Shown: piece after piece, positions 1 to 38,308 of the stretch
Layout of the letters: every line of letters starts with the position of its first letter
Numbering within the stretch: the stretch's first letter is position 1
Origin: an uncultured Methanosarcinales archaeon
Lineage (GTDB): Archaea; Nanobdellota; Nanobdellia; Woesearchaeales; UBA583
Assembly (NCBI GenBank): GCA_964429995.1
Contig: CAYSDY010000002.1
Span: 110,361 to 174,360 of the forward strand
Direction of reading: 5' to 3'
Length of the DNA stretch: 64,000 nt
Made by a program: the position numbers and the translations under genes
Notes under the pieces: generated by a model
Database searches by the model: none
Told to the model about the DNA's origin: nothing
The model's input: the letters and a program-made list of their open reading frames with translations, nothing else

Positions 1-1208
1 TAATAATGTGTATCAAATAATCCATAATCACTGTAATTCATGTTTAGATTTGTCAATAAGCCAAGTTCTACAATGTATTCATCATCTCCAGAAATAATTG
101 GCAGTGCATTAGAAACATTAGCGATAATTGATTTGCTTTCAGTTTTATTGCTACTAGAATTTAAGGTAACGTTAATTGTGTATGACCCTTGCTGATTGTA
201 CATTAGTTTAGTAGATGTAAAAGTGCCTGTGTTTAAGTTACTAGAATTGCTTATGTATCCATCTCCCCAATTAATAGTTAAATTGTATTCAAAAGAACTA
301 TTATAATTAAAACTTATATTTAATGTTAACGATTTACCTTCAAATAAACTTTGATTAGGTCCAATACTCAAATTTAATGTTTCATTGTAAGAATCTGTGT
401 TTACATAATTGTTTGTTAACGGCAAATAATCATATACTTCTGTCCATAAATCAATCTTATGAGCACTTTCTCCAATTCCATCTAAATTAGTGTCATTTCC
501 GTTATAATCTGACCAAAAATTACCACCTATATGTGTACCATTAATTATGTTATTAGTTAGAAACTTTGTAGTATTAAAATGATTATTTAAATTCCCATTG
601 AATATTATATTATAAGAACAATTAAACTTATTATTATATATGATATTGTTAGAAGAAGGATCCCCCATAAAATCAACAAATTCTATTCCAGTTCCAACTG
701 CTGAATCAAAAATAGAATCTTTTACAGTAACATTATCACTCCCTTCAAATAAGATACCCCAATCCATGTCATAAAAAGAATTATTTTCAATGATATGATT
801 ATCTCCATTAACTTTTATTGAAGTTCTAATGTTATTGAAAGTAGAATTTTGAATTTGTACATTCTGATCACTTGGGTTTCTTATATAAATTCCTAAATTT
901 GTAAAATCTTCAAAAATACAATTTTTGATTGTTATATTAGAATGTTCTATCCATAAGCCTTCGTTTGCCATTCCATTTTTTAAAGTAGATCCATTACAAT
1001 CTAAAAAAATATTATCATTAGAAGTTATGAACCCAACAGCAGGAGATCCCATATTTAATGTGTAAATTCCGTTACATAAAACAGTATCTGAATTTAGATA
1101 ATTTGGATTAGTTAGGTCAGGAACTAAACAACTATGTGTTATTCTAATGTTAAAAATAAAAATCAAAAATAAAAGTATCAGGATTTTAAATTTATTTTTA
1201 GTTGCCAT
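1..1208 (-). CDS. Secreted parallel beta-helix repeat protein (NosD/pectate-lyase-like), N-terminal signal peptide; C-terminus truncated by window edge
   Basis: ATG at 1208 (minus). My own translation gives MATKNKFKILILLFLIFIFNIRITHSC..., a signal peptide followed by repeated N/G/I-rich beta-helix-like repeats (NITIKNCIFEDF, NVTVKDSIFDS) with no stop codon to position 1. Absent from the ORF track because it runs off the window. Confidence 0.5.
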   Translation of the reverse strand, partial: MATKNKFKILILLFLIFIFNIRITHSCLVPDLTNPNYLNSDTVLCNGIYTLNMGSPAVGFITSNDNIFLDCNGSTLKNGMANEGLWIEHSNITIKNCIFEDFTNLGIYIRNPSDQNVQIQNSTFNNIRTSIKVNGDNHIIENNSFYDMDWGILFEGSDNVTVKDSIFDSAVGTGIEFVDFMGDPSSNNIIYNNKFNCSYNIIFNGNLNNHFNTTKFLTNNIINGTHIGGNFWSDYNGNDTNLDGIGESAHKIDLWTEVYDYLPLTNNYVNTDSYNETLNLSIGPNQSLFEGKSLTLNISFNYNSSFEYNLTINWGDGYISNSSNLNTGTFTSTKLMYNQQGSYTINVTLNSSSNKTESKSIIANVSNALPIISGDDEYIVELGLLTNLNMNYSDYGLFDTHY

Positions 1209-1222
1209 TTTATTTTGAGAAA

Positions 1223-4200
1223 TTAACATTCTCCTTCATTATATTTTGTGATTCCTGCCTTATTTGCAAGACAACTATTTGGATAAGTTTTCTTATTGGC
1301 ACAAACAGGTTCGTAATCAGAAGAACATAGAACATTCTTTGAATAATCTGTGGAGTCGTTGCTAAAAATGTTTTTTATCCATCGTTCAATTTTTCTAAAA
1401 ACACTAGGTTCTAAATTAGTGATTTTGATTTTTCCTTCTGTAAATTTTAAGTAAAAAGTTTGTCCAGGATTTTTGGATAAGATAATTTCTTCAAGTATTT
1501 CTTGATTTATTTCTATTAGTATTTGTGCATTTTGCGAATGGTCTTCTTGAATGATTCCAGTGCTTATATCAATATTTAATTTTTCTATACTTAAATCTGT
1601 TCTAATTCCGTTAATGTTGATGATGTTTTTTGTTTTTAGAAAATTAACCAGATCATCATAACTTGAGATATAATAATCTGCTATTTGAATGTAGGTTATA
1701 TTTTCTAAAGATTTATTCAATAAGTGTTGACTGATGATTTCTGATAAATCTTCTTTACTTAAATTAGTTTTTTTACTTTGGTTTTTATCTAGTATTATTT
1801 CAAAATCATAATCTTTTTTATCACACATTTTTTTAAGGATGAAATAGCTTGCTTCTAATTCTTGATGATTTAGAACCTTATCGTTCTTTGATTTAATATT
1901 TCTATTTCTGGAAATTGATTTTAATTTTTCTAAGCTGGAATCTTTAGAAATAATAGTGTAATTTTTATTTTTGTAATATGAATCTGATAAATATGTATTT
2001 TTAATTGATTCAAAATAACTGCAATCTAATTTAAGGCTTTTAAAATCAGTTGCCTTTAAACTGATACCTATATTTTTTTTTATATCGTTAAATTTAATAG
2101 AATCGAATAAAATTTCTATTCTTTTATAGGTTGGTTGTGTAATGTTTAATTCTTTTACAGGCTCTGGTGTGATTGCAAACATTCTTACATATCTTTGGTA
2201 AGTAATCATTTTAAGTTCACAGTCATATGAGTTTTTTGAACATTCTAAGGCAAGAATTTGGTTTTTATTAGGATTAATATCAATTGCAACAATATTTTTA
2301 TTGTTTGTTACATTGTATACTAAATCTATTCTTTTTAAAGCAAAATCATAATAATAAATACTGCTATTTAATGTTTTATTATCAATTTCTATTTCTCCTA
2401 AAGAAAAAAACATACCTTTTGGAATATTATTAGAATCTAGTTTGTAATCAAATCTTAAATCATATATTCTTCCTTTTGGTATTGTAAATTCAAAAGTTGA
2501 ATTAATTGGATATTTATTTAAAATATTTTTATCGTTTTTAATTATTTGAACAATAGCCCCAGAACTTGAAGATCCGTGTGTTGTTAATGCTATATATTTT
2601 CCGTCGTTAGAATATGCAACATAAGCAGGATTATAATAAGATCCCTTTGTAGATAAAACATCAAATACAAAGGTTTTATTTGTGCTATTATTTATGCCCA
2701 TGTAGTTATGATAAACTAAAGAATGTGTATTAGATGATATGTATGATGATGGGTCAATTCCTACTTGTTTAGACATTATATAAGATTCTTTTGAATCAGC
2801 AGGATTTCTCATTAAATATTGTTGACAATTTGGAACATTAGTTCCAAAATAACTATGATTTGAGTATAATTCGTAATATTTGTCTAAATATTCCTGTTCA
2901 TTAATTCCGTAATAATATTTTGCTCCCATTAATTCGGATTCTTTAAAATAAATCCATTCTGCTGAGTTAACAGAAGATAGTTGTTTATTAGGGGAAATAG
3001 ATTCTAAATTTACATTTAATGTGGGGAAAAATCTTATTTTAAACAAATCCAATTTAGTTTGTGGGTCTTTTTCTTTACTTACAAAATAAATATTTTTACT
3101 TGCATCTTTTGACCAGCCAGTTAGAAATTGTTTTGTATAATCGGGAATGTAAAAAAGAGCATTTCTTATAAAATTAAAACTATTACTATTTTCGTTAAAA
3201 TTCATTAAGTGATACAATAGGCTTTTATCTATTTGGGAATTACTATTAGATGCTACACCATAGATAAAAGAATTTCCATCAGGTGAAAAATAACCGCAAG
3301 TATCTCTTTGTGAATTTCCACTGTCTAAAACTCTTATAGACTTAACGTTGTAGCTAAAATTATTATTGAAAAATAAACTTATATTTTTAGATTTTTTATC
3401 TTCAAATTCATCTTTTATTGAATCTTTTGATACACATTGTCCATTTTTCCAAATTTTATTATTTAATACAGAACATGCTTTATGTAAATTTGATTCGTAA
3501 CATGTATCAAAAAAAGCGTCCCAAATAAAATTATTTTCTTTACAATCTTCTTCATCTTCTAAGTCAAAACATTCGTCTAAAGAATCAGACCAATACAAAT
3601 CATCATTTAAACATTCTGCTTGTTCTATTGATTCAGCACAAACTCCATAAGAAGAAACAAATAATCCATCTTCATCACAACATTCATCTTCACTTTCAAC
3701 ACACATTCCTAAATTTTCACAAAAGAAAAGATCTTCAGACATACATTCATAAACATCTTCCGATTCAATACAATCTCCATCTAAATAAAATGCTTCCTGT
3801 TCAATACATTCCATTTCAAAATCTGATTCATAACATGAATCAGTTATAATACTCCAAAAATTTCCTTCAATTAAACATTCTGCTTCATTTTCTGTTTCGG
3901 CACAATATTCTTCATCTTCAACCCAAAAGCCATTTTTCCAGTTTGTACATTCAAATTCATTATATTCTACACCTTCAGAAATACAATATCCATCTTCCCA
4001 AATTCCACCTGTTTCTTCACAATATCCCTGTTCAAACGAAACACATTCATCTTCTTGGTTTAAAATTCCTGAACAATAATCATCTGTATCATATTGACAA
4101 AGACCAATTTCAAAACAGGTTGCTTGTTCTAAATCTATGCATTCATCTAATTCATCAATATACATTTGTTCTTCATATTCACAACATTCAGGAGTAGAAC

Positions 4201-4657
4201 CTCTGATTAAGCTGTCATCAATAAACATGTCACAATTTTCAATCATGTAATCTGCAAATACTTCCCAGCAGAAATCATTCATTTCATCTTCATATTCATA
4301 AACGCAGATATCACCGTAATAATCTTCATTTTCTTCAACACATTCTTGTCCATTGCTATATTCTGGAAATTCTGCCAGACAATCATTTTCGTATTCCTCT
4401 TTATGTTCATTTAAACATTCCCAAGAATATATTGAATCACCAAGTGGAAATTCTTCTAGACACATATTTTTTAATTCATCTGCAAAATCATTTTCGCAGA
4501 CTTCCTGACAAGCTAATTGATGGAAAAAAGTTCCATTAACAAAATTAGCAAAAATTAAAATATTAATAAAAAGAATTAAGATTTTATTAATATTAACGTA
4601 TCTTTTAAATTCAATTATATCTTTTTTTGAATTATATTTTTTTAATGAATTACTCAT
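1223..4657 (-). CDS. Large membrane-anchored/secreted protein: Cys-rich acidic tandem repeat region, PD40/TolB-like beta-propeller repeats, C-terminal Kazal-type inhibitor-like domain
   Basis: 1144-aa ORF. N-terminal signal anchor ILILFINILIFANFV. About 60 Cys in D/E-rich repeats (ECxxE...C). FSPDGNSF and YSNDGKYIAL PD40-like motifs. C-terminal CSSDYEPVCANKKTYPNSCLANKAGITKYNEGEC matches the Kazal Cys/Tyr spacing. Confidence 0.6.
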   Translation of the reverse strand: MSNSLKKYNSKKDIIEFKRYVNINKILILFINILIFANFVNGTFFHQLACQEVCENDFADELKNMCLEEFPLGDSIYSWECLNEHKEEYENDCLAEFPEYSNGQECVEENEDYYGDICVYEYEDEMNDFCWEVFADYMIENCDMFIDDSLIRGSTPECCEYEEQMYIDELDECIDLEQATCFEIGLCQYDTDDYCSGILNQEDECVSFEQGYCEETGGIWEDGYCISEGVEYNEFECTNWKNGFWVEDEEYCAETENEAECLIEGNFWSIITDSCYESDFEMECIEQEAFYLDGDCIESEDVYECMSEDLFFCENLGMCVESEDECCDEDGLFVSSYGVCAESIEQAECLNDDLYWSDSLDECFDLEDEEDCKENNFIWDAFFDTCYESNLHKACSVLNNKIWKNGQCVSKDSIKDEFEDKKSKNISLFFNNNFSYNVKSIRVLDSGNSQRDTCGYFSPDGNSFIYGVASNSNSQIDKSLLYHLMNFNENSNSFNFIRNALFYIPDYTKQFLTGWSKDASKNIYFVSKEKDPQTKLDLFKIRFFPTLNVNLESISPNKQLSSVNSAEWIYFKESELMGAKYYYGINEQEYLDKYYELYSNHSYFGTNVPNCQQYLMRNPADSKESYIMSKQVGIDPSSYISSNTHSLVYHNYMGINNSTNKTFVFDVLSTKGSYYNPAYVAYSNDGKYIALTTHGSSSSGAIVQIIKNDKNILNKYPINSTFEFTIPKGRIYDLRFDYKLDSNNIPKGMFFSLGEIEIDNKTLNSSIYYYDFALKRIDLVYNVTNNKNIVAIDINPNKNQILALECSKNSYDCELKMITYQRYVRMFAITPEPVKELNITQPTYKRIEILFDSIKFNDIKKNIGISLKATDFKSLKLDCSYFESIKNTYLSDSYYKNKNYTIISKDSSLEKLKSISRNRNIKSKNDKVLNHQELEASYFILKKMCDKKDYDFEIILDKNQSKKTNLSKEDLSEIISQHLLNKSLENITYIQIADYYISSYDDLVNFLKTKNIININGIRTDLSIEKLNIDISTGIIQEDHSQNAQILIEINQEILEEIILSKNPGQTFYLKFTEGKIKITNLEPSVFRKIERWIKNIFSNDSTDYSKNVLCSSDYEPVCANKKTYPNSCLANKAGITKYNEGEC

Positions 4658-4780
4658 ATAGATGATTTTATGTTAGTAAATTTATAAGCTTTTTTATATG
4701 CAGACTTTAAAGTCTTATTTTGTTTAATGATTTTTTGGTACTGTACTTTTACTGACTATAGTTAAATTAACTTTTTTAAT

Positions 4781-4812
4781 AAAAATCCCCGTCATTCATG
4801 GCGGGGATTTTT
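4781..4812. promoter_or_regulatory. GC-rich perfect hairpin (11-bp stem aaaaatccccg/cggggattttt, 10-nt loop) in divergent intergenic region
   Basis: Seen directly in sequence. It is the only GC-rich palindrome in an otherwise AT-rich spacer between divergent genes 1223..4657(-) and 4916..5548(+). Confidence 0.3.
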
Positions 4813-4915
4813 ACTTAATGAGCAAATAGAAAAAGAGTTTGAAATAAGAATTTATAGATAAAATTAAACAATAAATTTATAAATACCGGTAAATAGGTAT
4901 GATTATACTTAAAAT

Positions 4916-5548
4916 ATGGTAAAGCTACTTACAGAAAAACAATTGAATATCTTCAAGGTTTTTAGAGAAAATATTTTCAAAGAATATACCTATAATGAAT
5001 TAAAAGAAAAACTAGATGAAAAATCCAATAGTTTTTTAATATCTTCTTTAAAAAAAATTAAAGAAATGGATTTAATTATAGATCAAAAAATTAATAATTC
5101 TAAAATTTATTATTTAAATTTAGAAAATGATTTAGTTTTTGATTATATTGAACTTATAAATTACGATTTTTATAAATCAAATACATTAAAAAAAATAATT
5201 AATTTATTAAAAAATCAATTAGATACTCAACTATATTCATACTCAATTGTAATATTTGGATCTTTTGCAATAGATAAAGAGAAAAAAAACTCAGATTTAG
5301 ATATTGCAATTTTTATTGAAGATGAGAGAAATAGAGAATTTATTGAAAATAGTTTTAAATCAATTAAACTAAAATCATTAATTGAATTAGATTTACATGT
5401 AATTTCAAAAAAAGAATTTTTAAAGATGTTAAAAGTTGATTATTCTAATTTGGGTAAACTAATTTATCAAAAACATAAATGTATTTATAATACGAAATTA
5501 TTTTATAAAATATTAAAAGAAGGAGATAAAAATGGATTTAGAATATAA
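4916..5548 (+). CDS. Nucleotidyltransferase (minimal Pol-beta-type NTase, MNT-like) with N-terminal wHTH-like region
   Basis: IFGSFAIDKEKKNSDLDIAIF matches the GS...D.D signature of minimal nucleotidyltransferases. The downstream gene overlaps by 17 nt. Confidence 0.6.
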   Translation: MVKLLTEKQLNIFKVFRENIFKEYTYNELKEKLDEKSNSFLISSLKKIKEMDLIIDQKINNSKIYYLNLENDLVFDYIELINYDFYKSNTLKKIINLLKNQLDTQLYSYSIVIFGSFAIDKEKKNSDLDIAIFIEDERNREFIENSFKSIKLKSLIELDLHVISKKEFLKMLKVDYSNLGKLIYQKHKCIYNTKLFYKILKEGDKNGFRI

Positions 5549-5648
5549 AACCTATATTGAAAGAGCAGAAAATGAAATAGAACTTGCAGAGATTATATTA
5601 GAGATTTCAACAAATTCTAATAAAAAAGAAGAATTTAATTTATTATAG
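5532..5648 (+). pseudogene. Truncated HEPN-like fragment (38 codons) overlapping the NTase gene, a degraded MNT/HEPN toxin-antitoxin partner
   Basis: MDLEYKTYIERAENEIELAEIILEISTNSNKKEEFNLL*. It resembles the first helix of HEPN proteins but lacks the Rx4-6H motif and is far too short. Confidence 0.3.
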
Positions 5649-5661
5649 TAAAAAGAATATT

Positions 5662-5701
5662 GCAAATTTACCAATTATTGTGCATTTAAGTAATTTCTTT
5701 T
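5662..5701. repeat. Copy 1 of ~40-nt imperfect direct repeat (core tttaccaatWattgtgcatt ... aatttctttt)
   Basis: Matches 36990..37030. The 20-nt core is 19/20 identical and is followed by an identical aatttctttt. Both copies sit in convergent 3-prime intergenic regions. Confidence 0.5.
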
Positions 5702-5712
5702 GCTATTAACTA

Positions 5713-6276
5713 TCAATCAGCATAAATAGTTTCTTCATCATATTTATTATATATATGATTCATATTGTTTAAACTTTTTAACTGAATTTTTTCATTATTT
5801 ATTTCAACAATACTTATTGATGTTGGATCTAATACAATATTTTTTGTTTTTTCAGGTTCGATCTCTAATGTTTTTGAAATGAAAAACTTCATAATATTCC
5901 CATGAGAAACAACAAATACTTTTTTAAGATTCATAGATATTAATTTATTCCAAAAAATATTAGCTCTTTCTAAATCTTCTTCAATTCTATTCGATCTTGT
6001 ACCTTCTTTAGGAGCACCTCCGACAATTAATCTATGTATCTCTTGAAGTTCATTTGTTATTTTAAGCTCTGGTTTATTGATATTTTGTAATTGAATTTCT
6101 TTTGCTGTTAGTTGAGCTCTTTCTAAATCAGATGATATAATTAAATCAATTTTTTCATTTTTTAAACTTTCTGCTAATAGATTTATTTGTTTTTTACCAT
6201 TCTCAGTAAGAATTGGAGGTTTATTTGGGTCTAAATTGGCTTCTGTTTCTGCATGTCTAATTAAATATATTTCCAT
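5713..6276 (-). CDS. Histidine phosphatase family protein (phosphoglycerate-mutase-like)
   Basis: N-terminal LIRHAETEAN (RHG-type catalytic His motif) and later SHGN. Last gene of the tightly packed minus-strand operon, 1 nt after the upstream stop. Confidence 0.7.
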   Translation of the reverse strand: MEIYLIRHAETEANLDPNKPPILTENGKKQINLLAESLKNEKIDLIISSDLERAQLTAKEIQLQNINKPELKITNELQEIHRLIVGGAPKEGTRSNRIEEDLERANIFWNKLISMNLKKVFVVSHGNIMKFFISKTLEIEPEKTKNIVLDPTSISIVEINNEKIQLKSLNNMNHIYNKYDEETIYAD

Positions 6277-6277
6277 T

Positions 6278-6850
6278 TTACTTAGTTAAAATATCATAAA
6301 TATTCTTCTCTAGTTCTTCTTTAACATTATCAAAAGAATGATTAGTATTCATATAATTAATATTTATTTCTAAGTTTTTAGCTATTTCTTTTGAATAATT
6401 TTGAAATTTTTCTTTATCATTTGTTCCTTGATAAATAACTATATCTTTGTTTTTCAAATGATTGATGTCAAACACTACATCTTCTAACTTCAACAAACCT
6501 AAATCTGTATTCATTATGTTAGATATAGTTGAATTTCCAATAATTATAGGAGATGCCAAAAATATATATTTATCAAAATTAATATTGGTTAATAAAGAAA
6601 TAACTCCACCAAAGCTTTTACATATTGTAAAAATATGTTTATAGTTTTTTTCTTCTTTTTTTAATTCTAAATTAATTAATGAAACAAGCTTATCAAATGT
6701 TGTATTTTCAAAATCACAAATAACCTCTATAACATCAAACTTATCTTCAAATGTTTCTATTTCAAATAATGAATCAAACTTTTTTTTAGATGCACCTGAA
6801 AAAAACACTATTAAAGATTCATTTCTATTATCAATTATTTTATTTATCAT
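6278..6850 (-). CDS. Small alpha/beta-hydrolase-like protein (putative Ser-Asp-His)
   Basis: LIVFFSGA, CKSFGG (nucleophile-elbow-like), QGTNDK and NHSF motifs. I prefer the internal ATG at 6850 (11-nt overlap with the upstream gene) over the longest ORF start at 6928. Confidence 0.45.
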   Translation of the reverse strand: MINKIIDNRNESLIVFFSGASKKKFDSLFEIETFEDKFDVIEVICDFENTTFDKLVSLINLELKKEEKNYKHIFTICKSFGGVISLLTNINFDKYIFLASPIIIGNSTISNIMNTDLGLLKLEDVVFDINHLKNKDIVIYQGTNDKEKFQNYSKEIAKNLEININYMNTNHSFDNVKEELEKNIYDILTK

Positions 6851-7880
6851 TTTTATTATACATACATAATAAGTTTCCTTTATATAATTCTCCAGTTTCC
6901 CAATATGAATAAGCTCTACAACCTCCACATAATTGAATTAATTCACAATCTTTACAATTACCTTCAAATTTCCTATTCCTCATGATATTATAATCTTTAG
7001 AATTGTTCCAAATATCAATTATAGAAGTAGTATTAGTATCACCAATTATAATATCATTTAACATAGGACAGAATGCTACATTACCATCATTATTAAAATA
7101 CATATAACTAATTCCAACACTACAACCTGCATACAAATTAAAAGTACCATAATTGTCTTTAATATTTTGTAATAATGATTTATTTGCAGCTAATGCCAAT
7201 GGATCTCCAGAGAAATAATGAATATTATATTTTTCAGAATATTTTGGAAGTTGTTCTAATATTTTAAAATATTCTTTTTTATCTACGAATAATTCTTTTT
7301 CATTAAGATTGGCATATCCCATATAAATACATCCTCTCAATCCAACTTCATCTGCACCTAAATCTTTTGCAAATTTAAAGAAATCTTCAATGTCATCTTT
7401 ATTAATATTCATTATTGTAAGTCTTAAAACAAATGGAATATTTAACAACACACAGTTTTGAGATGCTTCTACTACCTTATCATATGATAATTTATTTTGT
7501 CTAATATAATTATGAGTTTCTTTTTTATAGCTATCTAAAGAGAATTGTATTCTATCCAAACCTATTTCTTTTAATTTTTTTAATTTTTCTAAATTACAAA
7601 AATATGCATTTGAAACCAATATTATTTTCATTTTAGTATTTTTCTTAATAAATTCAATAATTTCATATAAATAAGGATATAGTAATGGCTCTCCACCCCC
7701 TAATTCTATCCATTCAACTTCATCTCCCCAGTTTGTATTTATTTGGGTTAAGATATCTATTACTTTTTCTTTTGAGATATGATTATTCTCATCAACTCTT
7801 CCTCTACAATGTAAACATCTAAAATTACATTTTCCTGTTAAATCAATATGTATTATTTTCGGTTTAAATTTTAAGTTCAT
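6840..7880 (-). CDS. Radical SAM enzyme with C-terminal SPASM/twitch-like Cys-rich domain
   Basis: CNFRCLHC (CX3CX2C) near the N-terminus. C-terminal CKDCELIQLCGGCRAYSYWE Cys cluster. The ATG at 7880 forms an ATGA overlap with the upstream stop; an alternative ATG lies at 7943. Confidence 0.8.
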   Translation of the reverse strand: MNLKFKPKIIHIDLTGKCNFRCLHCRGRVDENNHISKEKVIDILTQINTNWGDEVEWIELGGGEPLLYPYLYEIIEFIKKNTKMKIILVSNAYFCNLEKLKKLKEIGLDRIQFSLDSYKKETHNYIRQNKLSYDKVVEASQNCVLLNIPFVLRLTIMNINKDDIEDFFKFAKDLGADEVGLRGCIYMGYANLNEKELFVDKKEYFKILEQLPKYSEKYNIHYFSGDPLALAANKSLLQNIKDNYGTFNLYAGCSVGISYMYFNNDGNVAFCPMLNDIIIGDTNTTSIIDIWNNSKDYNIMRNRKFEGNCKDCELIQLCGGCRAYSYWETGELYKGNLLCMYNKNDK

Positions 7881-8626
7881 TTTTTTAATGTTGTTATTGC
7901 CCTTGGTTGTAATATATATATATTTCCATGATATATTGTCCATTCAATATCCTGTGGATATTTAAATATAGACACTATTTGTTTACCAATTTCAGCTAAT
8001 TCATAAATTTGATTTTTAGATAAAATATTTTTATTTCTACCATACATATGTCTAATATTATCAGAGTTAATTAAATATGTATCTGCAATTGTATTACCTG
8101 AAACTAATGCGTCACATGTTCCTGCTTTTACTTCTAATAACATCTCTTCTTTTTTTGACATTGGACTTTGTGTAAACAATGTTCCTGAAAAATTGCCTTT
8201 CAAAAACTCTTGTATGATTACAGCGAATGACAAATTATCAATATTTATTGATAAAGCTAAAGCATAGTCTTGTAATCTTTCTGATTTAGAAGAATTCCAG
8301 CAAGAAATGATACTTGATGCAATATTTTCCACTTTAACATTTAACAACGATTCAAATTGACCGGGGAAAGCATATTTATTTCCATCTTCTAGATTGGAAG
8401 ATGACCTCACAGCATAATTTTTTTCATGATTTACAAATGAATTAAATGTTTTATCTTGTTTTAATAATTTTTCTAATTCTTCTATATTTGGATTTTGCTG
8501 TCTAATAGTATCTGAGATTACAATTCCTTTTGGGACTAAAATATTATGTTTTATTATTTGTGATAAATTAAATGCTTTATTTCCGTATAAATTTCTATCG
8601 TGAATCCTTGCCAAACCATCTATCAT
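7877..8626 (-). CDS. PEP-utilizing enzyme N-terminal ATP-binding domain protein (PPDK_N / PEP synthase / rifampicin phosphotransferase-like), stand-alone
   Basis: YGNKAFNLSQI and YAVRSSSNLEDG correspond to the GGKAANL and AVRSSA.AED motifs of PPDK_N. ATGA overlap at both ends. Confidence 0.65.
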   Translation of the reverse strand: MIDGLARIHDRNLYGNKAFNLSQIIKHNILVPKGIVISDTIRQQNPNIEELEKLLKQDKTFNSFVNHEKNYAVRSSSNLEDGNKYAFPGQFESLLNVKVENIASSIISCWNSSKSERLQDYALALSINIDNLSFAVIIQEFLKGNFSGTLFTQSPMSKKEEMLLEVKAGTCDALVSGNTIADTYLINSDNIRHMYGRNKNILSKNQIYELAEIGKQIVSIFKYPQDIEWTIYHGNIYILQPRAITTLKK

Positions 8627-9630
8627 TTTCTTTTAATTTTTGCTTCTCCAATATTTTCATCAAAGTTAACTTTTATACTAATAATATCATCATCTTGTAT
8701 TTTTTCAGTTCCTTTATTATTATACAATTCAGTTCCAACTATACAAGGGATGTCTAATTCTCTAGAAACAACTGCTGCATGACAAGTTATTGAACCAGTA
8801 TCAGTAATTATTCCGCCTGCTTTTGTCATTAAACTTGTTAATTGAGGATCTGTTCTTGGTGCAACAAGTATATCACCTTTATTAAAATTCATATTTTTTA
8901 AATCATCTCTAATAGTTATAGGGTCAAACTTTGTTAGTATTTTAGCAATTCCTTCTATTTCCCCTTCTGATGCAGGAATTCCATTTATTATTTGTTCCAA
9001 ATTAGTTTGTTTAGAAAAAATTAAAGCAGCTTGCATATAATCTAATTTAATTTTTTGATTAAATCTGTCTACTAAATTATTTTGATAACTATTAATTGGG
9101 TCAACTAATCTTATATAGCTATTCTTATGTCCTCTAATTACAATATTATGAGTAGGATAGCTAGTTGGGTAATTAATTTCAACTAATATTGGTAATCCTT
9201 TCTCAACAAATGGATGCAAATCGTCATATTCAAAAGGCCCATTTATTATATTAAAATTTTCACTATTTGATAATTCATCTATATATGGCAAAAATTCATT
9301 CATAAAATCATCAAATAAATCATGTGGGAAAAATATAGGATTTGGTTTTCTTGGGCCCTCCATTAACATAGTTACACGATATCCATTATCAATAGCATAT
9401 TTAGCAAGTTTGGGATAACTTCCATATTCTCCAAACCCTCCTTCCCAAAATCTAATGATTCTATGTATTTCCATTTCTTTTTCTTCTGTTAATGGATATT
9501 TCTCAGGTTCAAAATAATTAAACATCATTAATGCACTTGCAGCTATGCAAGTAGTTGGAGTAGTTTGTAAATAACTATTAACAGCTAATTTTATACTTTT
9601 TCTTTGTAAATAATTATATTTATCTTCCAT
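8623..9630 (-). CDS. Fusion: papain-fold C39-like cysteine peptidase domain + PEP-utilizing enzyme mobile (phosphohistidine swivel) domain
   Basis: N-terminus has QTTPTTCIAASALMMF, then HNIVIRGH...RLVDPI (Cys-His-Asp pattern of C39 double-glycine peptidases). C-terminus has TGSITCHAAVVSRELDIPCIVGT, the phosphohistidine swivel signature. Confidence 0.55.
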   Translation of the reverse strand: MEDKYNYLQRKSIKLAVNSYLQTTPTTCIAASALMMFNYFEPEKYPLTEEKEMEIHRIIRFWEGGFGEYGSYPKLAKYAIDNGYRVTMLMEGPRKPNPIFFPHDLFDDFMNEFLPYIDELSNSENFNIINGPFEYDDLHPFVEKGLPILVEINYPTSYPTHNIVIRGHKNSYIRLVDPINSYQNNLVDRFNQKIKLDYMQAALIFSKQTNLEQIINGIPASEGEIEGIAKILTKFDPITIRDDLKNMNFNKGDILVAPRTDPQLTSLMTKAGGIITDTGSITCHAAVVSRELDIPCIVGTELYNNKGTEKIQDDDIISIKVNFDENIGEAKIKRK

Positions 9631-10549
9631 CTTCCTTTGTTAAATCTAGTAGTAAATCTTGTTTTATATCTAAAGCATAATTTGCATTATTAACTAAATG
9701 ATTATTACTTTTTGCTTTTAATTTTAAAAAAATTGATTCTCTAAATAATACATCTAAAACACCGAATTCAACTTTGTATCTTTTTTGAGGTTCTTCATAT
9801 CCTCCCCAATGTGACATTCTATGTAATAATCTAATACTTTCTTCTAATTCGGGATGTTTATTAGCAATATTTTCAATTAATGTTTGATATCTTTCAACTT
9901 TTTTATTTTGGTTAGCTTGCACTCTTTCTAATAATGAGAAATCATAGTCTAATTCAAAAGTATTTAATTCTAAATGAGCTAAGTCAATATTAGAATATGT
10001 AAATTCATTTGCAAATTCAGTAATATTTTTGTTTCCATTTCTTACTTGATAAACATAATTTACTAATTGAATTTCAAAACTACTAATTGGAGGGATAACT
10101 ATTTTCTCAGCTGTATCTAATAATTCTTTTCGAATTTTTTCTATTCTTGGCTCTAATCCTTCAGAAACATAAACCCTTAATCTACAATCATTAAATATAA
10201 ATTGTTTTAAGTAAGTCTCCCAATTGTCTTCACTACTTAGAATAACATCCCAATTTTGTGCTAATTGAAATAAAGAATTATCATGTTGATACCAACTAGA
10301 AATATATTTATTAAAAAAGTCTAAATCTGAACATTCATCTCTTTCTTTTCTAATTTGTTTCATAGAATTTGCAAATAAATTTCCAGAGTGTTCAGATTTT
10401 AGTATTAAATTTCTTAACTCAATTAAATCCATGCCTAAATCTTTCAAACTAGAATTTACAACATTATTTATTATCTCACGATTATAGCTTTGTAACCAAA
10501 ATAAATAATCCCTTTCAAATTGAAAGGGCACAGTTAATTTTTGAATCAT
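9620..10549 (-). CDS. Hypothetical protein, co-operonic with the peptide-modification genes
   Basis: 309-aa ORF with no motif I recognise. Its ATG overlaps the stop of the upstream 37-aa ORF (ATGA). Confidence 0.45.
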   Translation of the reverse strand: MIQKLTVPFQFERDYLFWLQSYNREIINNVVNSSLKDLGMDLIELRNLILKSEHSGNLFANSMKQIRKERDECSDLDFFNKYISSWYQHDNSLFQLAQNWDVILSSEDNWETYLKQFIFNDCRLRVYVSEGLEPRIEKIRKELLDTAEKIVIPPISSFEIQLVNYVYQVRNGNKNITEFANEFTYSNIDLAHLELNTFELDYDFSLLERVQANQNKKVERYQTLIENIANKHPELEESIRLLHRMSHWGGYEEPQKRYKVEFGVLDVLFRESIFLKLKAKSNNHLVNNANYALDIKQDLLLDLTKEDGR

Positions 10550-10659
10550 TTTATTCTTCTTTTACTTCTTGTGATTTTTTGTGATTCTTTTATATCAGCT
10601 TTGATACCACCATAAGCAACGCATGCTAGTTGCCATAAAACTTTTTCTGTATTTTCCAT
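10546..10659 (-). CDS. Candidate precursor peptide (37 aa) with double-glycine motif
   Basis: My translation is MENTEKVLWQLACVAYGGIKADIKESQKITRSKRRIK*. The N-terminal half is hydrophobic/acidic and ends in GG. The C-terminal half is strongly cationic. Stop TGA overlaps the ATG of the next gene. A TATA-like tttataaaaat lies about 45 nt upstream. Confidence 0.35.
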   Translation of the reverse strand: MENTEKVLWQLACVAYGGIKADIKESQKITRSKRRIK

Positions 10660-10820
10660 TTTGAAGTATAACAAGATTTACTTGTTATGTATTTATGATT
10701 TTTATTTTTATAAATGTTACGATATTACTCGAAGTTAATAACATTAAAATTTATAAACTTTTGTTTATGTCACTACTAATTACTAAAACTTAAATAGTTT
10801 GAACTTTTAGAATATTATAG
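10660..10820. promoter_or_regulatory. Divergent promoter region (TATA-like boxes on both strands) between the peptide operon and integrase
   Basis: AT-rich 160-nt spacer with tttataaa-type boxes at about 10702..10713 (reading minus) and 10748..10757. Confidence 0.3.
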
Positions 10821-11948
10821 ATGCAGTTTATAGAATCATACAAATTTAAGCATAAAGATTGGAATCAAACAAAAATTAGAGTTTTGATTCACATGGTAAG
10901 AAATTTTGAACCTGAAAATCATAGACTATTTGCTCAAATGCTTTCAATGTTAGAACCTGAAAGCTCAAAGAAAATATTTGAAGAAATAAAAAATATGGGA
11001 GAGTATTTCAAAAGAATTATTGATATTGCAAATGTCGAAGATGAGAAGAATAATTTAGTTGAACAAATTTTAGCTTCAAAAAATGATTCAACAATTAATT
11101 CCACTGAAAGTTATGATGTATTGAGTATGTATAATAAATATAAAGAATCATTTTCTGAGTGGATGTTTACAAATAGAACTAAAAGGTATGCTACAAGTAC
11201 TGTAAATGAATGTTCTAAATTGTTTGCATGTGATGTTAAGAATATTTTAGATATTAGAAGAGAGATTGTAAATAATAAAAGCTTACCTCCTAGAACTAAT
11301 AATGCTTTTAGAGCTTTTTTGAATTTTGTAGAAGAAAAGACTCCAATTAGTCCGATTTTACTAAATGATTTAAGAGTATATATTAAAGGTGGTGTTGGAG
11401 AACATGTTGACAAGAGAGTTCCAACTAAGGAAGAAATTTTAAGATCAATTCAAACAATTAAAAGAGATTATTCCAATAACGATTTAATGCTTTATTATTT
11501 TTTATTTGAGTCAGGATGTAGATTTGAGGAACTTAAGAAAGTTATCTTAGAATTTGATTTTGATAAGTTTGTTGAAGGAGATGATTTTTCTTACTATAAA
11601 TTGTTTTGGAGAAGAGGAAAGAAGAACTCATTTATATTATTCTTTAGACCTGAAACTATAAAACATATTGTAGATAATTTAAAGATTTATCAAGATAATA
11701 CTTATTTAGAAAGGTTTAAAGATTGGCTTCAAGATAATCAAGATATTGAAAGTTCAAAGTATGTAAGAAAATTTACATTTACAGAAATGATTCATACTAG
11801 TGAGATTGATATAACTATTGCAAATCTGTTTCAGGGAAGAACAACAAAAGGAGACATTGGTGAGAAACATTACTTGGAATATGAAAGATTACTAGTTAAA
11901 TGGTATCCAAAATTTTTACCATTTGCAAAAGAAATTGAAGGTGAGTAA
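10821..11948 (+). CDS. int: Tyrosine recombinase / integrase
   Basis: C-terminal catalytic region has ESGCRFEEL (R) and RKFTFTEMIHTSE ... GRTTKGDIGEKHYLEY (H..R...Y). Paralogous to the integrase at 37283. Confidence 0.75.
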   Translation: MQFIESYKFKHKDWNQTKIRVLIHMVRNFEPENHRLFAQMLSMLEPESSKKIFEEIKNMGEYFKRIIDIANVEDEKNNLVEQILASKNDSTINSTESYDVLSMYNKYKESFSEWMFTNRTKRYATSTVNECSKLFACDVKNILDIRREIVNNKSLPPRTNNAFRAFLNFVEEKTPISPILLNDLRVYIKGGVGEHVDKRVPTKEEILRSIQTIKRDYSNNDLMLYYFLFESGCRFEELKKVILEFDFDKFVEGDDFSYYKLFWRRGKKNSFILFFRPETIKHIVDNLKIYQDNTYLERFKDWLQDNQDIESSKYVRKFTFTEMIHTSEIDITIANLFQGRTTKGDIGEKHYLEYERLLVKWYPKFLPFAKEIEGE

Positions 11949-12005
11949 AAGTCTTTAGAGACAACTTTATAAATAATCTTGTTATGAATATGTTAGGATA
12001 CAAAA

Positions 12006-13031
12006 ATGAAAGATTTAACAATCAAAGATGAAATTACTGAATTTATTATATATAAAGCACCTAATGAAGAAATTAAGGTAGAAGTATTTTTACATAATGA
12101 AACAGTCTGGTTAACGCAAAAAAGAATGTCGGAACTTTTTGATGTTGGAATCCCTGCAATTTCTAAACATTTAGATAATATTTATTCTGAAGGAGAATTA
12201 GATAAAGATTCAACTATTTCCATTTTGGAAACAGTTCAAAAGGAAGGAAATAGAGAAGTTAAAAGAAAACTCGAGTATTATAATTTAGATGTAATTATTG
12301 CAGTTGGTTATAGAGTTAATTCATATAGAGCAACTCAATTTAGAATTTGGGCAACAAAAATACTCAAAGAATACATTATTAAAGGATTTGCAATGGATGA
12401 TAAGAGATTAAAAAATCCTAATAATGTTTTTGGTAAGGATTATTTTGATGAACAATTAGAAAGAATACGAGATATAAGAAGTAGTGAGAGAAGATTCTAC
12501 CAAAAAATAACTGATATCTATTCTCAGTGTAGTGCTGATTATGATTCTAAATCTAAAATTACTGAAGATTTTTTTGCAATAGTTCAAAATAAACTACATT
12601 ATGCAATCTCTGGAAAAACAGCTGCAGAAATTATATATTCTAGAGCAAATAGTAAAGAACAAAATATGGGACTTACTTCTTGGAAAAATTCTCCTAAAGG
12701 AAAGATTAGAAAAACTGATATTAGTATTGCAAAGAATTACCTTAACAATGAAGAATTGGATTCATTAAATAGAATTGTATCAATGTATTTAGATTATGCT
12801 GAAATGCAAGCTAAAAAGCAAAATATAATGTATATGAAAGATTGGGTTAATAAATTAAATGCTTTTTTAAAATTTAATGAAAGGGAAATCTTACAAGATT
12901 TGGGCAAAGTTACTTCTGAGATTGCTAAAGAGTTTGCAGAAACAGAATTTGAAAAATATCGTATCATTCAGGATAGATTATTTAAGAGTGATTTTGATAA
13001 GTTAATTGAAAAAAGTAGAGATATAAAATAA
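12006..13031 (+). CDS. RhuM family virulence/cell-filamentation-like protein
   Basis: ETVWLTQKRMSELFDV, YYNLDVIIAVGYRVNS, ATQFRIWATKILKEYIIKGFAMDD are the characteristic RhuM blocks. RhuM genes are commonly RM-associated. Confidence 0.75.
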   Translation: MKDLTIKDEITEFIIYKAPNEEIKVEVFLHNETVWLTQKRMSELFDVGIPAISKHLDNIYSEGELDKDSTISILETVQKEGNREVKRKLEYYNLDVIIAVGYRVNSYRATQFRIWATKILKEYIIKGFAMDDKRLKNPNNVFGKDYFDEQLERIRDIRSSERRFYQKITDIYSQCSADYDSKSKITEDFFAIVQNKLHYAISGKTAAEIIYSRANSKEQNMGLTSWKNSPKGKIRKTDISIAKNYLNNEELDSLNRIVSMYLDYAEMQAKKQNIMYMKDWVNKLNAFLKFNEREILQDLGKVTSEIAKEFAETEFEKYRIIQDRLFKSDFDKLIEKSRDIK

Positions 13032-13953: not shown

Positions 13954-16500
13954 ATGGCTAAAAAAAAAGTAAAACTTATTCCAGTCAAAGAAAAAACTAG
14001 TACTGATGATTTTAAAGATCAAGTTAAACAATATACTCATCAAGAATCTAAAAGGATTAATAACCCTCCTATTGGTTTAGTTACAGCAGAAACTGATAGT
14101 TTGAATGGAGTTAAAAAATATGAATATGATCCACATTTAAATCCTCAATTAGTTTGGGCTGGAAAGAAAGAAGGAATTAGTTTTGAAGTTGATACCGTTT
14201 CTCTTCATGTTCATGAAAGAATAGATCCATTATCTATTATTGAGAATGTGAAGAAAAGTGATGGTGAGATACAATTTTCTCTTTTCCATTATTTTGAAAA
14301 TGATAACAGACCTATAAGAGAAGCGATTGAATTTTATAAACACGAACAAAACTGGTCAAATAGATTAATTGCAGGAGATTCTTTGATTGTAATGAATTCT
14401 CTTCTTGAAAAAGAAGGAATGACTAGAAAAGTTCAGATGATTTACATTGATCCACCTTATGGAATTACTTATGGTTCTAATTTTCAACCATTTGTTAATA
14501 AACGAGATGTGAAAGATAGAAAAGATGAAGATTTAACTCAAGAGCCAGAAATGATTAAAGCATTTAGAGACACTTGGGAATTAGGGATTCATTCGTATTT
14601 AAGTTATTTAAGAGATAGATTAAAACTCTCAAAAGATTTATTGACTGATAGCGGAAGTTGTTTTGTTCAAATTTCTGATGAAAACTTACATCATGTAAGA
14701 GAAATAATGGATGAAGTTTTTGGTCCTGAGAATTTTGTTAGTCTGATTGCTTTTAAAAAAGGATTAGGATATTCTGAGAAATTTATTCCTTCTGTTTATG
14801 ATTATTTAATTGTTTATGCAAAGGATAAGACTCAGCAAAAATATAGAAAACCTCTTGTTTTTGATGACGAAGAGAATTTTATTACTTTTGGTTGGATTGA
14901 ATTACCTAATGGTGAAAGAAGAAGAGTTTCTAAAAAAAACGATTTTGTTAATGATAAATTTGTAACTAAAGGGAGATTATTTCAAACATCAACTTTAGTT
15001 TCTAAAGGTTCTGCTAAAGAATCACAAGAATATGAAATGGAAGGAACAAGATATTTCCCTTCGACAGGAACACATTGGAAAACAAAATGTCCTGAAGGAT
15101 TAAATAATTTGAAAAGTAAAAATCGTTTAATTGGCGTGAATAAAACTCTTGCTTTTGTAAGATTTAAAGAGGATTTCCCATATAAAATACCAACTAATGT
15201 TTGGGATGATACATTACAAAGTACATTTTCCTCTGATAAAGTCTATGTTGTACAAACTAATACTAAAGTTATTCAAAGATGTATTCTTATGACAACCGAC
15301 CCAGGAGATTTAGTATTAGATCCTACTTGTGGAAGTGGAACTACTGCATTTGTTGCAGAACAATGGGGAAGAAGATGGATAACTTGCGATACATCGAGAG
15401 TTGCTACAACACTAGCAAAACAAAGATTAATGACATCTATTTTTGATTATTATGAATTAGCTCATCAAAATGAAGGGATTAAATCTGGTTTCAAATACAA
15501 AACTGTTCCACATATTACTTTAGGTTCGATTGCAAATAACGAGCCAACAAATGAAGAAACTTTATACGACCAACCTTTTATTGACAAAAAGCGTAGAAGA
15601 GTTACTGGTCCTTTTACCTTAGAAGCTGTTCCATCTCAGAGAGTAACAAGTTTTGAAGATGTTGAACAAGCAATACAAGAACCTGATATGACAATTGCTC
15701 GTTCTGGAGAAACAATGAAACAGAACGATTGGATTGATGAAATGCTTGCAACAGGAATAAGAGGAAAAGCAGGACAAAAAATTGAATTTGTAAGAATAGA
15801 AACTCTTGGTGGAACAAGATGGGTTCATGCAGAAGCAGAGACTAAAGACGGACAAAAAGTAGTTATTTCTTTTGGTCCCCAATATGCACCATTAGAACAA
15901 AGGCAAGTAGAATTGGCAATTGAAGAATCTCAATCATTAGTTCCAAAACCAAAAATGATTATTTTTGCGTCATTCCAATTTGATCCTGAAGCAGCCAAAG
16001 ATATAGATGAGTTAAAATGGCCTGGAGTCAATATTCTAAAAGTTCAGATGAATACTGATCTCTTAACAAACGACTTAAAGAAAAAGCGTTCAAGTAGTGA
16101 ATCCTTCTGGTTAATGGGACAACCAGATATAGAAGTTAAAAAACAAAACGATAAATATGTTGTAGAAGTAAATGGATTTGATTATTATAACACAAAAACT
16201 GGTGAAATCGAATCTGGAGATTCTTCAAAAATTGCAATGTGGGAATTGGATACTGATTATGATGGAAGAAGTCTTTATCCAAGACAAGTGTTTTTTCCAA
16301 TGGCTGGAAGTGGAGAAGGTTGGGATAAACTCGCAAAAAACATTAAAGCAGTTATTGATGAAGAACTAATTGAACAATATAAAGGAAATATTTCAATCCC
16401 TTTCAAACTTGGTCCAAATAAAAGAATAGCTGTAAAAATTATTGATGATAGGGGAATCGAATCTTTAAAGATTGTGGAGATTAAAGATGGAAACAACTAA
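13954..16500 (+). CDS. mod: Type III restriction-modification system methyltransferase (Mod), N6-adenine/N4-cytosine class
   Basis: DPPYGITYG (motif IV) precedes LDPTCGSGTTAFVAEQWGRRWITCD (motif I), the beta-class order. 848 aa, with a long C-terminal extension. Confidence 0.85.
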   Translation: MAKKKVKLIPVKEKTSTDDFKDQVKQYTHQESKRINNPPIGLVTAETDSLNGVKKYEYDPHLNPQLVWAGKKEGISFEVDTVSLHVHERIDPLSIIENVKKSDGEIQFSLFHYFENDNRPIREAIEFYKHEQNWSNRLIAGDSLIVMNSLLEKEGMTRKVQMIYIDPPYGITYGSNFQPFVNKRDVKDRKDEDLTQEPEMIKAFRDTWELGIHSYLSYLRDRLKLSKDLLTDSGSCFVQISDENLHHVREIMDEVFGPENFVSLIAFKKGLGYSEKFIPSVYDYLIVYAKDKTQQKYRKPLVFDDEENFITFGWIELPNGERRRVSKKNDFVNDKFVTKGRLFQTSTLVSKGSAKESQEYEMEGTRYFPSTGTHWKTKCPEGLNNLKSKNRLIGVNKTLAFVRFKEDFPYKIPTNVWDDTLQSTFSSDKVYVVQTNTKVIQRCILMTTDPGDLVLDPTCGSGTTAFVAEQWGRRWITCDTSRVATTLAKQRLMTSIFDYYELAHQNEGIKSGFKYKTVPHITLGSIANNEPTNEETLYDQPFIDKKRRRVTGPFTLEAVPSQRVTSFEDVEQAIQEPDMTIARSGETMKQNDWIDEMLATGIRGKAGQKIEFVRIETLGGTRWVHAEAETKDGQKVVISFGPQYAPLEQRQVELAIEESQSLVPKPKMIIFASFQFDPEAAKDIDELKWPGVNILKVQMNTDLLTNDLKKKRSSSESFWLMGQPDIEVKKQNDKYVVEVNGFDYYNTKTGEIESGDSSKIAMWELDTDYDGRSLYPRQVFFPMAGSGEGWDKLAKNIKAVIDEELIEQYKGNISIPFKLGPNKRIAVKIIDDRGIESLKIVEIKDGNN

Positions 16501-25917: not shown

Positions 25918-25918
25918 A

Positions 25919-26410
25919 ATGACAATTCAAAAAAAACTTAAAACAATGAATAAGGAAGAGTTAATTTTAGTTATTAATGATTTATTAAAATATAATTCTG
26001 AAAATAGAAAGTATTTAAATTTAAGATTATCTGATGAAATTGATTTTAAAAAATTATCAGAAGAATCAAAAATAAAAATTAAAAATTGTTTTTCAGATTT
26101 TAAAGCAGATATTAGAAGAAGTAAAAAGATACTTAGCGATTATAATAAATTAAATCCTCCTATTGATTTGTATTTAGATTTATTCTTATTCTACTTAGAA
26201 TATGGAATTAAATATGGACAACATAGAGATATGTATTCAAGCTTCTATTATAGCTTTGAAATAATGTTTGAAAAGTTTCTTGATTTAATTAAAAATGATT
26301 CAATTTTAGTTTCAAAGTATAAATCAAAGTTAGAAAAGATTGTTGATAATTCTCAACCAGGTTATGGACATTACGATACTCTTTCAGAATTAATGGAGGT
26401 TATAAAATAA
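25919..26410 (+). CDS. Hypothetical small protein
   Basis: 163 aa, with 1-nt gaps to both neighbours. Confidence 0.4.
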   Translation: MTIQKKLKTMNKEELILVINDLLKYNSENRKYLNLRLSDEIDFKKLSEESKIKIKNCFSDFKADIRRSKKILSDYNKLNPPIDLYLDLFLFYLEYGIKYGQHRDMYSSFYYSFEIMFEKFLDLIKNDSILVSKYKSKLEKIVDNSQPGYGHYDTLSELMEVIK

Positions 26411-26411
26411 A

Positions 26412-38279: not shown

Positions 38280-38308
38280 ATTAGGTCTCTTTTTTTAGTC
38301 GCCGCCGG

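Follow-up and report, generated by a model that had tools for sequence, protein, structure and literature searches.

In the 64-kb window analyzed here (the whole 64,000-nucleotide stretch of contig CAYSDY010000002.1, strongly AT-rich at ~25% GC), two genes at positions 7877-9630 encode, judging from their sequences, a two-component dikinase of the phosphoenolpyruvate (PEP) synthase/rifampicin phosphotransferase (RPH) type that has intact relay residues and lacks a pyruvate domain. The phosphohistidine swivel domain forms the C terminus of the upstream gene product, following a papain-like domain, and the ATP-binding domain is a separate protein; the open reading frames (ORFs) are placed just as an earlier, sequence-only reading of this DNA had described them. 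With slightly better than even confidence, we propose that a cassette for the maturation of a ribosomal peptide has taken up the dikinase as a tailoring module. The genes and domains that carry this proposal are the following:

8623-9630, minus strand: fusion gene for the peptidase-swivel protein, 335 amino acids (aa) (ORF list)
9010..9630, minus strand: C39-like papain-fold peptidase domain, residues 1-207 of the fusion, with candidate catalytic residues Q22, C28 (codon 9547-9549), H161, and D177 (sub-threshold Pfam matches, Foldseek, and conservation)
8623..9009, minus strand: linker and phospho-His swivel (PEP-utilizers), residues 208-335 of the fusion, with the His284 codon at 8779-8781 (Pfam and alignment)
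7877..8626, minus strand: stand-alone ATP-grasp (PPDK_N) subunit, 249 aa, overlapping both neighboring genes by 4 nucleotides (nt) (Pfam and profile search)

Both halves of the phosphoryl relay are intact. Residues 249 to 319 of the 335-aa protein matched the PEP-utilizers mobile domain (Pfam, E value = 1e-20; score of 73.5 bits, cut-off of 23.1), and the histidine of its TCHAA segment, H284, aligned to the one that is catalytic in solved PEP synthases and in RPH. T276, D277, G279, C283, and H284 were invariant among seven homologues, and the segment T276-D-T-G-S-I-T-C-H284 fits the motif that defines swivel domains, T/SxxGGxxxH (PMC12167813), with S in place of the second G in the window copy. 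The 249-aa protein forms a compact and complete ATP-grasp domain (PPDK_N, Pfam, E value = 2.8e-34), and its family profile matched a PEP synthase (8a8e, 1e-54) and RPH's ATP-grasp domain (5hv6, 3e-52). Every expected nucleotide-site residue was present; the invariant positions were K17, R74, E80, D81, Q90, E140, D226, E228, Q240, and R242, which we take to map to K22, R92, D321, E323, Q335, and R337 of pyruvate phosphate dikinase (PPDK). The catalytic histidine and the ATP-grasp residues, which the sequence-only reading had singled out for checking, are therefore not degenerate. In Pfam and NCBIfam scans, no cassette protein matched the PEP/pyruvate TIM barrel (PF02896), the absence of which had been noted before, and the NCBIfam scores for PEP synthase and PPDK fell far under the cut-off (85 versus 598 bits). 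In a local hidden Markov model (HMM) scan of all ORFs of at least 50 aa, the 64 kb yielded neither a further swivel gene nor a further PPDK_N gene. Since the relay from ATP-grasp domain to swivel histidine is intact and no pyruvate domain is present, a non-pyruvate acceptor is implied, and the earlier suggestion of an ATP-to-histidine relay onto such an acceptor is supported by the sequences.

A search of 5.8 billion proteins for the combination of a C39-like domain with a swivel yielded six full-length relatives and one fragment. The neighborhoods of these relatives, together with loci recovered through the radical S-adenosylmethionine (SAM) gene of the cassette, gave 10 distinct loci, nine of them bearing the dikinase; only two carry organism names, both of them Candidatus Woesearchaeota metagenome-assembled genomes (MAGs). 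These loci allowed us to weigh the possibility that the pair is a decayed housekeeping PEP synthase or PPDK, or a housekeeping split typical of the lineage, lying beside a peptidase by chance. Stand-alone PPDK_N and swivel proteins are indeed common in data from the candidate phyla radiation (CPR) and DPANN: the best 150 matches to the window ATP-grasp protein were mostly stand-alone proteins of 230 to 330 aa (one from Aenigmarchaeota), and there are many swivel proteins of ~500 aa that lack an ATP-grasp domain and align to the distal acceptor-domain and swivel region of RPH-like enzymes (hhalign, 5e-39). However, neither part of the pair is truncated, and each keeps its catalytic residues without change, at 29 to 44% identity over nine loci. 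The junction between peptidase and swivel is conserved as well, the cassette moves as a unit beside integrases, and C39 plus swivel was found in only ~9 of the 5.8 billion proteins. Moreover, locus L043 has a separate, resident full-length PEP synthase-like gene, which is more distant from the cassette PPDK_N genes (2e-37) than these are from each other (3e-51). Because of the conservation data, the decayed-gene reading is excluded, and we regard the chance arrangement as a whole as extremely improbable. As to the earlier concern that the same split might be common housekeeping in this lineage, the stand-alone components are common in CPR and DPANN data, but the peptidase fusion is very rare and conservation effectively refutes the housekeeping reading.

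The split itself is a known one. In the two-component dikinases PpsAB, CreHI, and HpeHI, the acceptor-binding and swivel domains share one protein and the ATP-grasp domain is carried by a second (PMC12167813); these enzymes work via transient complexes, and in RPH and HpeH the acceptor-binding domain lies directly N-terminal to the swivel (PMC12167813; PMC4844700). The split and permuted order pointed out by the sequence-only reading is thus not unprecedented: the same layout is found in those three systems (PMC12167813), and stand-alone PPDK_N proteins of ~240 aa are abundant in CPR and DPANN. As far as can be told from components counted as single proteins, split dikinases seem to be common there. 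In one Woesearchaeota genome (GCA_016187565.1, locus L013, positions 1-6800), we observed five tandem paralogues of 284 to 470 aa, each ending in a PEP-utilizers swivel and with no PPDK_N gene within 9 kb, which appear to be acceptor-plus-swivel ("H-type") components of split dikinases.

The window pair shares with HpeHI, CreHI, PpsAB (phenylphosphate synthase), and their single-chain relative RPH the lack of a TIM barrel and the T/SxxGGxxxH motif, and with the two-component enzymes the separate ATP-grasp subunit and the C-terminal swivel histidine on a second protein. Unlike all of them, it has a C39-like peptidase domain where they have a helical acceptor domain of the RIF-binding type. Its ATP-grasp subunit is also much smaller (249 aa, compared with ~370 aa as calculated from a mass of 40.6 kDa), and its context is a peptide/radical SAM cassette rather than aromatic catabolism or antibiotic resistance. 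The novelty is thus the exchange of the acceptor domain for a double-glycine-type peptidase, together with the setting in a rare and hitherto undescribed peptide-maturation cassette. In the literature that we searched, we found no paper linking ribosomally synthesized and posttranslationally modified peptides (RiPPs) with PEP-utilizing enzymes or dikinases.

Residues 15 to 206 of the 335-aa protein gave C39-like Pfam matches (DUF3335 at 9e-05, Peptidase_C39_2, and Peptidase_C70) that stayed below the gathering thresholds (22.5 bits versus 25, 18.4 versus 24, and 17.1 versus 19, respectively). An AlphaFold2 (AF2) model made from seven homologues had a predicted local distance difference test score (pLDDT) of ~85 to 93 over this domain, and a Foldseek comparison with the PDB returned the C39-like structure 3erv, the double-glycine protease LahT150 (6mpz, solved together with its leader peptide), PCAT1, and ComA-PEP (E values of 2e-5 to 1e-3). 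The weak C39 call is upheld because the predicted structure matches C39-like peptidases. The predicted catalytic set of Q22, C28, H161, and D177 was invariant in seven homologues and was also kept in loci L040, L042, and L043. These results point to a putative C39-like, double-glycine-type peptidase of papain fold. It resembles the peptidases of LahT150, PCAT1, and ComA in its fold, in its Gln/Cys/His/Asp set, and in having a Gly-Gly substrate candidate with spaced hydrophobic residues upstream, but it is fused to a swivel and not to a transporter, as are the C39 enzymes of peptidase-containing ATP-binding cassette transporters (PCATs). The tether is covalent in eight of the nine dikinase-bearing loci, and in the ninth (L042) it is split by a frameshift inside the peptidase domain.

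The fusion belongs to a tight minus-strand operon of seven genes, for the 37-aa peptide, the 309-aa protein, the 335-aa fusion, the 249-aa subunit, the radical SAM/SPASM enzyme, a protein of 190 to 216 aa, and a His_Phos_1 protein. The first four junctions are overlaps of 4, 11, 4, and 4 nt (the 335-aa and 249-aa genes overlapping in ATGA), and the operon genes would therefore be cotranslated or translationally coupled. The three genes downstream of the pair are as the sequence-only reading had given them. The remaining features of the operon, and the gene that adjoins it, are as follows:

10546..10659, minus strand: precursor-like peptide gene, previously uncalled, 37 aa, MENTEKVLWQLACVAYGG up to GG and IKADIKESQKITRSKRRIK after it, with a TGA stop that overlaps the next ATG (ATGA) (ORF list and sequence)
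9620..10549, minus strand: all-helical 309-aa protein, a core cassette member (AF2 model; present in all loci)
6840..7880, minus strand: radical SAM/SPASM enzyme, with 346 aa when read from the ATG at 7880 (Pfam; CxxxCxxC at residues 18-25)
6278..6850, minus strand: divergent alpha/beta-hydrolase-like protein, 190 aa (190 to 216 aa depending on the start, 6850 or 6928) (position and motifs)
5713..6276, minus strand: His_Phos_1 (histidine phosphatase superfamily), 187 aa, with RHAE and SHG motifs, the last gene of the operon (Pfam, 1e-29)
10821..11948, plus strand: archaeal-type integrase, context only and outside the cassette, divergent and 272 nt from the helical-protein gene at 9620-10549

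In each of the 10 distinct loci, a peptide gene adjoins that of the helical protein; several of these peptide genes were uncalled. The peptides are 25 to 42 aa long and share the motif ΦL[W/Y/Q][Q/E]ΦxCΦx[C/Y]GG-[I/L], in which L(-11), C(-6), G(-2), G(-1), and I/L(+1) are invariant and the second Cys is a Tyr in the window copy. Aligned on GG, examples read MEKVLWQFSCLACGG-ISGSLDEEEN, MEKKIVLWQLGCLACGG-INGTIDENYTAD, and ..IILYELACMSCGG-ISANAKKFIKF, next to MENTEKVLWQLACVAYGG-IKADIKESQKITRSKRRIK in the window. An invariant Cys upstream of the GG is unusual for a C39 leader. This GG-containing peptide, encoded two genes upstream of the fusion, is likely the substrate of the putative peptidase domain.

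Each of the 10 loci encodes a radical SAM/SPASM enzyme, a protein homologous to the 309-aa one, a C39-like domain, and a small peptide, in three gene orders. In type A, the order is radical SAM, peptide, helical protein, fusion, ATP-grasp, and HD phosphohydrolase; in five loci that were scanned, the HD protein exceeded the Pfam threshold. Type B comprises the window, L042, and L043 and runs from peptide, helical protein, and fusion (with the ATP-grasp gene following in the window or lying divergently upstream) to radical SAM and alpha/beta hydrolase; the histidine phosphatase occurs in the window only. The peptide tails are acidic in type A and basic in type B. Type C is the single locus L040, which has radical SAM, helical protein, a stand-alone C39-like protein of 196 aa, peptide (MEQENKKVLQEFGCVACGGLSSEETCEQAEEA), and HD genes but neither swivel nor ATP-grasp; it spans 3982-7168, its helical homologue has 295 aa, its HD gene is on the opposite strand, and an integrase is nearby. 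Because this variant keeps the cassette without it, the dikinase is an accessory add-on module, grafted onto a preexisting system of peptide, radical SAM enzyme, and peptidase.

The radical SAM enzyme (Pfam, Radical_SAM at 4e-27 and SPASM at 1e-9) has the full SPASM cysteine set, its radical SAM and SPASM cysteines are invariant in 12 homologues, and with 50 to 56% identity between loci it is the best-conserved cassette gene. It has no extra N-terminal domain and starts directly at the cluster motif, with as little as Met-Glu-Lys ahead. The nearest solved relatives by profile were SkfB, PqqE, MoaA, anSME, CteB, and SuiB, with SkfB, PqqE, anSME, and CteB being SPASM enzymes that modify peptides, which is consistent with a chemistry on the peptide Cys without specifying it. 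Like the SkfA/SkfB sactipeptide, ranthipeptide/SCIFF-CteB, pyrroloquinoline quinone (PQQ), mycofactocin, and anSME systems, the cassette combines a SPASM radical SAM enzyme with a short Cys peptide gene and a protease. It differs from them in the very short N terminus of this enzyme, in the dikinase, in the helical protein without a fold match, in the phosphohydrolase, in its DPANN-type host, and in having no recognizable RiPP recognition element (RRE), as judged from a general Pfam scan that gave no PqqD match, no search being aimed at RREs. Outside the cassette, the nearest radical SAM gene (46% identity, no SPASM match) lies at 7001-13004 of locus L039 with a methyltransferase, a B12-binding radical SAM protein, and an Rce1-like protease, downstream of a tandem-repeat region that encodes repeated "MNPFHAFVTSRKGK" units and may be a different peptide system. 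At 14787-16932 of locus L001, ~8 kb from the cassette of a Woesearchaeota MAG, a separate trio again groups a radical SAM gene, here without SPASM, with a kinase gene of the APH type and a His_Phos_1 phosphatase gene.

The 309-aa protein was modeled as a 16-helix bundle (AF2, pLDDT of 84, predicted template modeling score of 0.83), whereas RREs contain beta-sheet. Its invariant polar residues include H89, D90, R125, E159, H247, E252, E253, K256, R257, R270, and E271, and only 5 homologues were found among the 5.8 billion proteins searched. It matched no family in Pfam, NCBIfam, PADLOC, or the PDB sequence profiles, no fold in the PDB or BFVD (Foldseek), and none of the ~500-aa swivel proteins (HMM), and it showed no similarity to full-length RPH-like enzymes or their central acceptor domain (hhalign probability of 0.15%).

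This protein is central to an alternative in which the dikinase acts on a small molecule, either a metabolite or, in the manner of cofactors of the PQQ/mycofactocin type, a fragment cut out of the peptide; the 309-aa protein would then bind the acceptor, and the peptidase would anchor the swivel or free the fragment. All characterized RPH-like and two-component dikinases take small molecules, the conserved 309-aa protein has many invariant charged residues and no assigned role, the solved relatives nearest to the radical SAM enzyme include PqqE, and the cassette has phosphohydrolase genes attached and no exporter. On the other side, the 309-aa protein is unlike RPH-like acceptor domains, and it also occurs in the dikinase-less locus L040 and is therefore not a dedicated dikinase subunit. 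Furthermore, the swivel is covalently joined to a peptide-binding domain in all dikinase-bearing loci but the frameshifted one. We judge this alternative to be unlikely, yet weighty enough to be carried along.

The hydrolases vary between loci. The 190-aa protein had no Pfam match, but it has a nucleophile-elbow-like KSFGG and a C-terminal NHSFD motif, and its gene sits where L042 and L043 carry Pfam-recognized Hydrolase_4/Abhydrolase genes; from this position and these motifs, it would be the counterpart of their alpha/beta hydrolases. HD genes occur in six other loci and also in the dikinase-less variant, an alpha/beta hydrolase alone occurs in two, and we found no His_Phos_1 homologue in the other cassette loci. 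The sequence-only reading had suggested that the histidine phosphatase might reverse the phosphotransfer; since it is not conserved across loci, a dedicated role of this kind is unproven. The idea of either the HD protein or the histidine phosphatase as a dedicated reverse enzyme is weakened by the HD gene of L040 and by type B loci without any phosphatase.

On these grounds, we favor a route from ATP via His284 to the peptide, because the domain N-terminal to the swivel is the destination of the phosphate in RPH and HpeH and is here a peptidase. By analogy with the family, the ATP-grasp subunit would phosphorylate His284, with ATP expected to yield AMP, Pi, and the phosphohistidine. The C39-like domain, flexibly linked to the swivel, would take the position of the acceptor domain of RPH and HpeH, bind the 37-aa peptide via its ΦLWQΦxCΦxYGG segment, and probably cut after GG. 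The phosphohistidine would then pass its phosphoryl group on to the peptide while this sits in the C39 cleft or as soon as it has left it. Candidate acceptors are the alpha-amine of Ile/Leu(+1) freed by cleavage (giving an N-P bond like that made by TalE), the Gly carboxylate freed by the same cleavage, the invariant Cys itself or in a form altered by the radical SAM enzyme, and an oxygen that this enzyme creates near the Cys. In further steps, the radical SAM/SPASM enzyme would modify the region of the invariant Cys, with the helical 309-aa protein as an essential partner, and a hydrolase would finish or recycle the product, this being the HD protein in other loci and the alpha/beta hydrolase and histidine phosphatase in the window. 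The earlier guess that the acceptor is possibly the peptide is much better founded now that every locus has a GG peptide and a peptidase domain of the double-glycine type is known to hold the swivel on a tether.

Several observations weigh against the route to the peptide. The swivel domain was modeled poorly by AF2 (pLDDT of 30 to 65). No position across the 10 peptides is consistently Ser or Thr, and classic O-phosphorylation at one site is therefore unlikely; a fixed Ser/Thr after GG as the target, as in lanthipeptides, was rejected for the same lack. The hydrophobic residues of the peptide are spaced at -5, -8, and -11/-12, one off the canonical pattern of double-glycine leaders (-4, -7, and -12). 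The cassette has no conserved exporter, and binding of the acceptor could instead fall to the helical 309-aa protein, perhaps with a substrate that is not a peptide. Finally, L040 does without a dikinase, and phosphorylation is thus not needed for the core chemistry, nor is the HD protein tied to phosphorylation.

One particular form of the peptide route is a "cut-and-phosphorylate" enzyme, in which cleavage by the C39-like domain after Gly-Gly is followed by phosphorylation of the new Ile/Leu alpha-amine by the swivel, giving an N-phosphoryl (phosphoramidate) peptide. TalE is a PPDK-like kinase that phosphorylates the alpha-amine of Leu-Trp, and the superfamily also takes an amide nitrogen as acceptor (PMC6482885). 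TalE, of the phosphoramidon/talopeptin pathway, and the L-glutamine kinase Cj1418 thus form N-P bonds within the same superfamily, a likeness to the window pair that is one of description, and the invariant Ile/Leu after GG would resemble the N-terminal hydrophobic acceptor of TalE. In contrast to the window pair, TalE is described as a PEP synthase/PPDK homologue and was cloned as one gene, its substrate is a nonribosomal dipeptide made by an ATP-grasp amide ligase, and it has no peptidase or radical SAM partner. We consider this specific form rather doubtful. On an equal footing with it stands a variant in which the radical SAM enzyme turns the invariant Cys into a formylglycine-like enol that the dikinase phosphorylates as it would pyruvate (an enol-phosphate activation in the style of PigC). 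The Trp-Gln pair of the motif, which is absent from the dikinase-less L040, was rejected as the target of a Cj1418-like Gln amide kinase: L042 and L043 carry Tyr-Glu yet keep the dikinase, and the pair is not conserved in type B.

A further alternative gives the product no phosphate at all: the swivel/ATP-grasp pair would regulate or energize the peptidase, for cleavage or for a ligation such as transpeptidation or cyclization via a Cys28 acyl-enzyme, loosely like the control of PCATs by ATP. C39 domains are usually coupled to an ATPase in PCATs, PCAT1 being among our matches, and the peptide has no obvious conserved phospho-acceptor side chain; the stand-alone C39-like protein of L040 suggests, by its sequence, a peptidase that works without the dikinase. 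However, all known members of the family hand the phosphate to a substrate, and the phosphohydrolase genes of the operons suggest a phosphorylated intermediate or product. In addition, we know of no precedent for a swivel histidine domain that regulates a fused enzyme in cis, which also counts against this alternative, and we give it little credence.

The surroundings of the cassette indicate mobility. The integrase gene next to it is followed by a RhuM gene, and in L001 and L040 there are flanking integrases as well; the cassette is thus mobile accessory cargo. A viral origin was rejected, as no cassette relative was found on IMG/VR contigs; the DNA-pattern matches there (n = 24) look like chance, one of them being a small ORF on a phage contig (L034, MWQFICGFCGGIYVG...). 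Neither did the cassette correspond to a known defense system: a search of PADLOC-DB 2.0 gave only a match of the generic radical SAM core to pVip (1e-18) and nothing for the other five proteins.

Beyond the cassette, positions 13954-38352 of the window look like a defense island. They hold a type III restriction-modification pair (13954-19288), RmuC (20535-21797), a HATPase_c_3 protein (21868-23283), a PD-(D/E)XK protein with a UvrD/PD-(D/E)XK helicase-nuclease (24922-29243), and a Wadjet-like (JetABCD) operon with DUF3375/JetA at 29245-30693, SMC-like JetC at 31269-34664, and JetD at 34651-35805. A second archaeal integrase (37283-38326) ends the region and overlaps a tRNA-Ser(GCT) gene (38196-38280), and an att-like 44-nt duplicate lies at 38240-38283 and 38309-38352. 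On the other side of the cassette, the minus strand encodes at 1223-4657 a 1,144-aa protein with a hydrophobic segment at its N terminus and a long stretch that is rich in Cys and very acidic; it had no Pfam or PADLOC match and is possibly a DPANN surface protein. Between this large gene and the cassette, a 210-aa nucleotidyltransferase of the NTP_transf_2/Polbeta type is followed by an overlapping 38-aa ORF (4916-5648, plus strand), which together may be a degraded pair of the MNT/HEPN type. Farther away, at 59778-61907 on the plus strand, a single 709-aa ORF encodes both a full phosphoglycerate kinase domain (1e-101) and a carbohydrate kinase domain of the PfkB family (2.5e-47), which makes it an unusual two-kinase fusion.

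The position of the cassette next to integrases and, in the window, next to the defense island hints at a role in conflict between organisms. If the dikinase acts on the peptide, His-swivel dikinases of the PEP synthase/RPH type would join the tailoring enzymes of RiPPs, and they might bring a kind of peptide phosphorylation that is new (N-P, enol-P, or acyl-P). Should the cut-and-phosphorylate form be true, the fusion would be the first dikinase-type tailoring enzyme of a RiPP, and its product a ribosomal, archaeal counterpart of the metalloprotease inhibitors of the phosphoramidon type. The retargeting of a swivel by fusion to another substrate-binding domain, here a protease, would be an example of modular evolution and a possible template for engineering. 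Moreover, the cassette would be a candidate pathway for a peptide natural product or a cofactor in the DPANN archaea, whose genomes are minimal and which have almost no characterized secondary metabolism.

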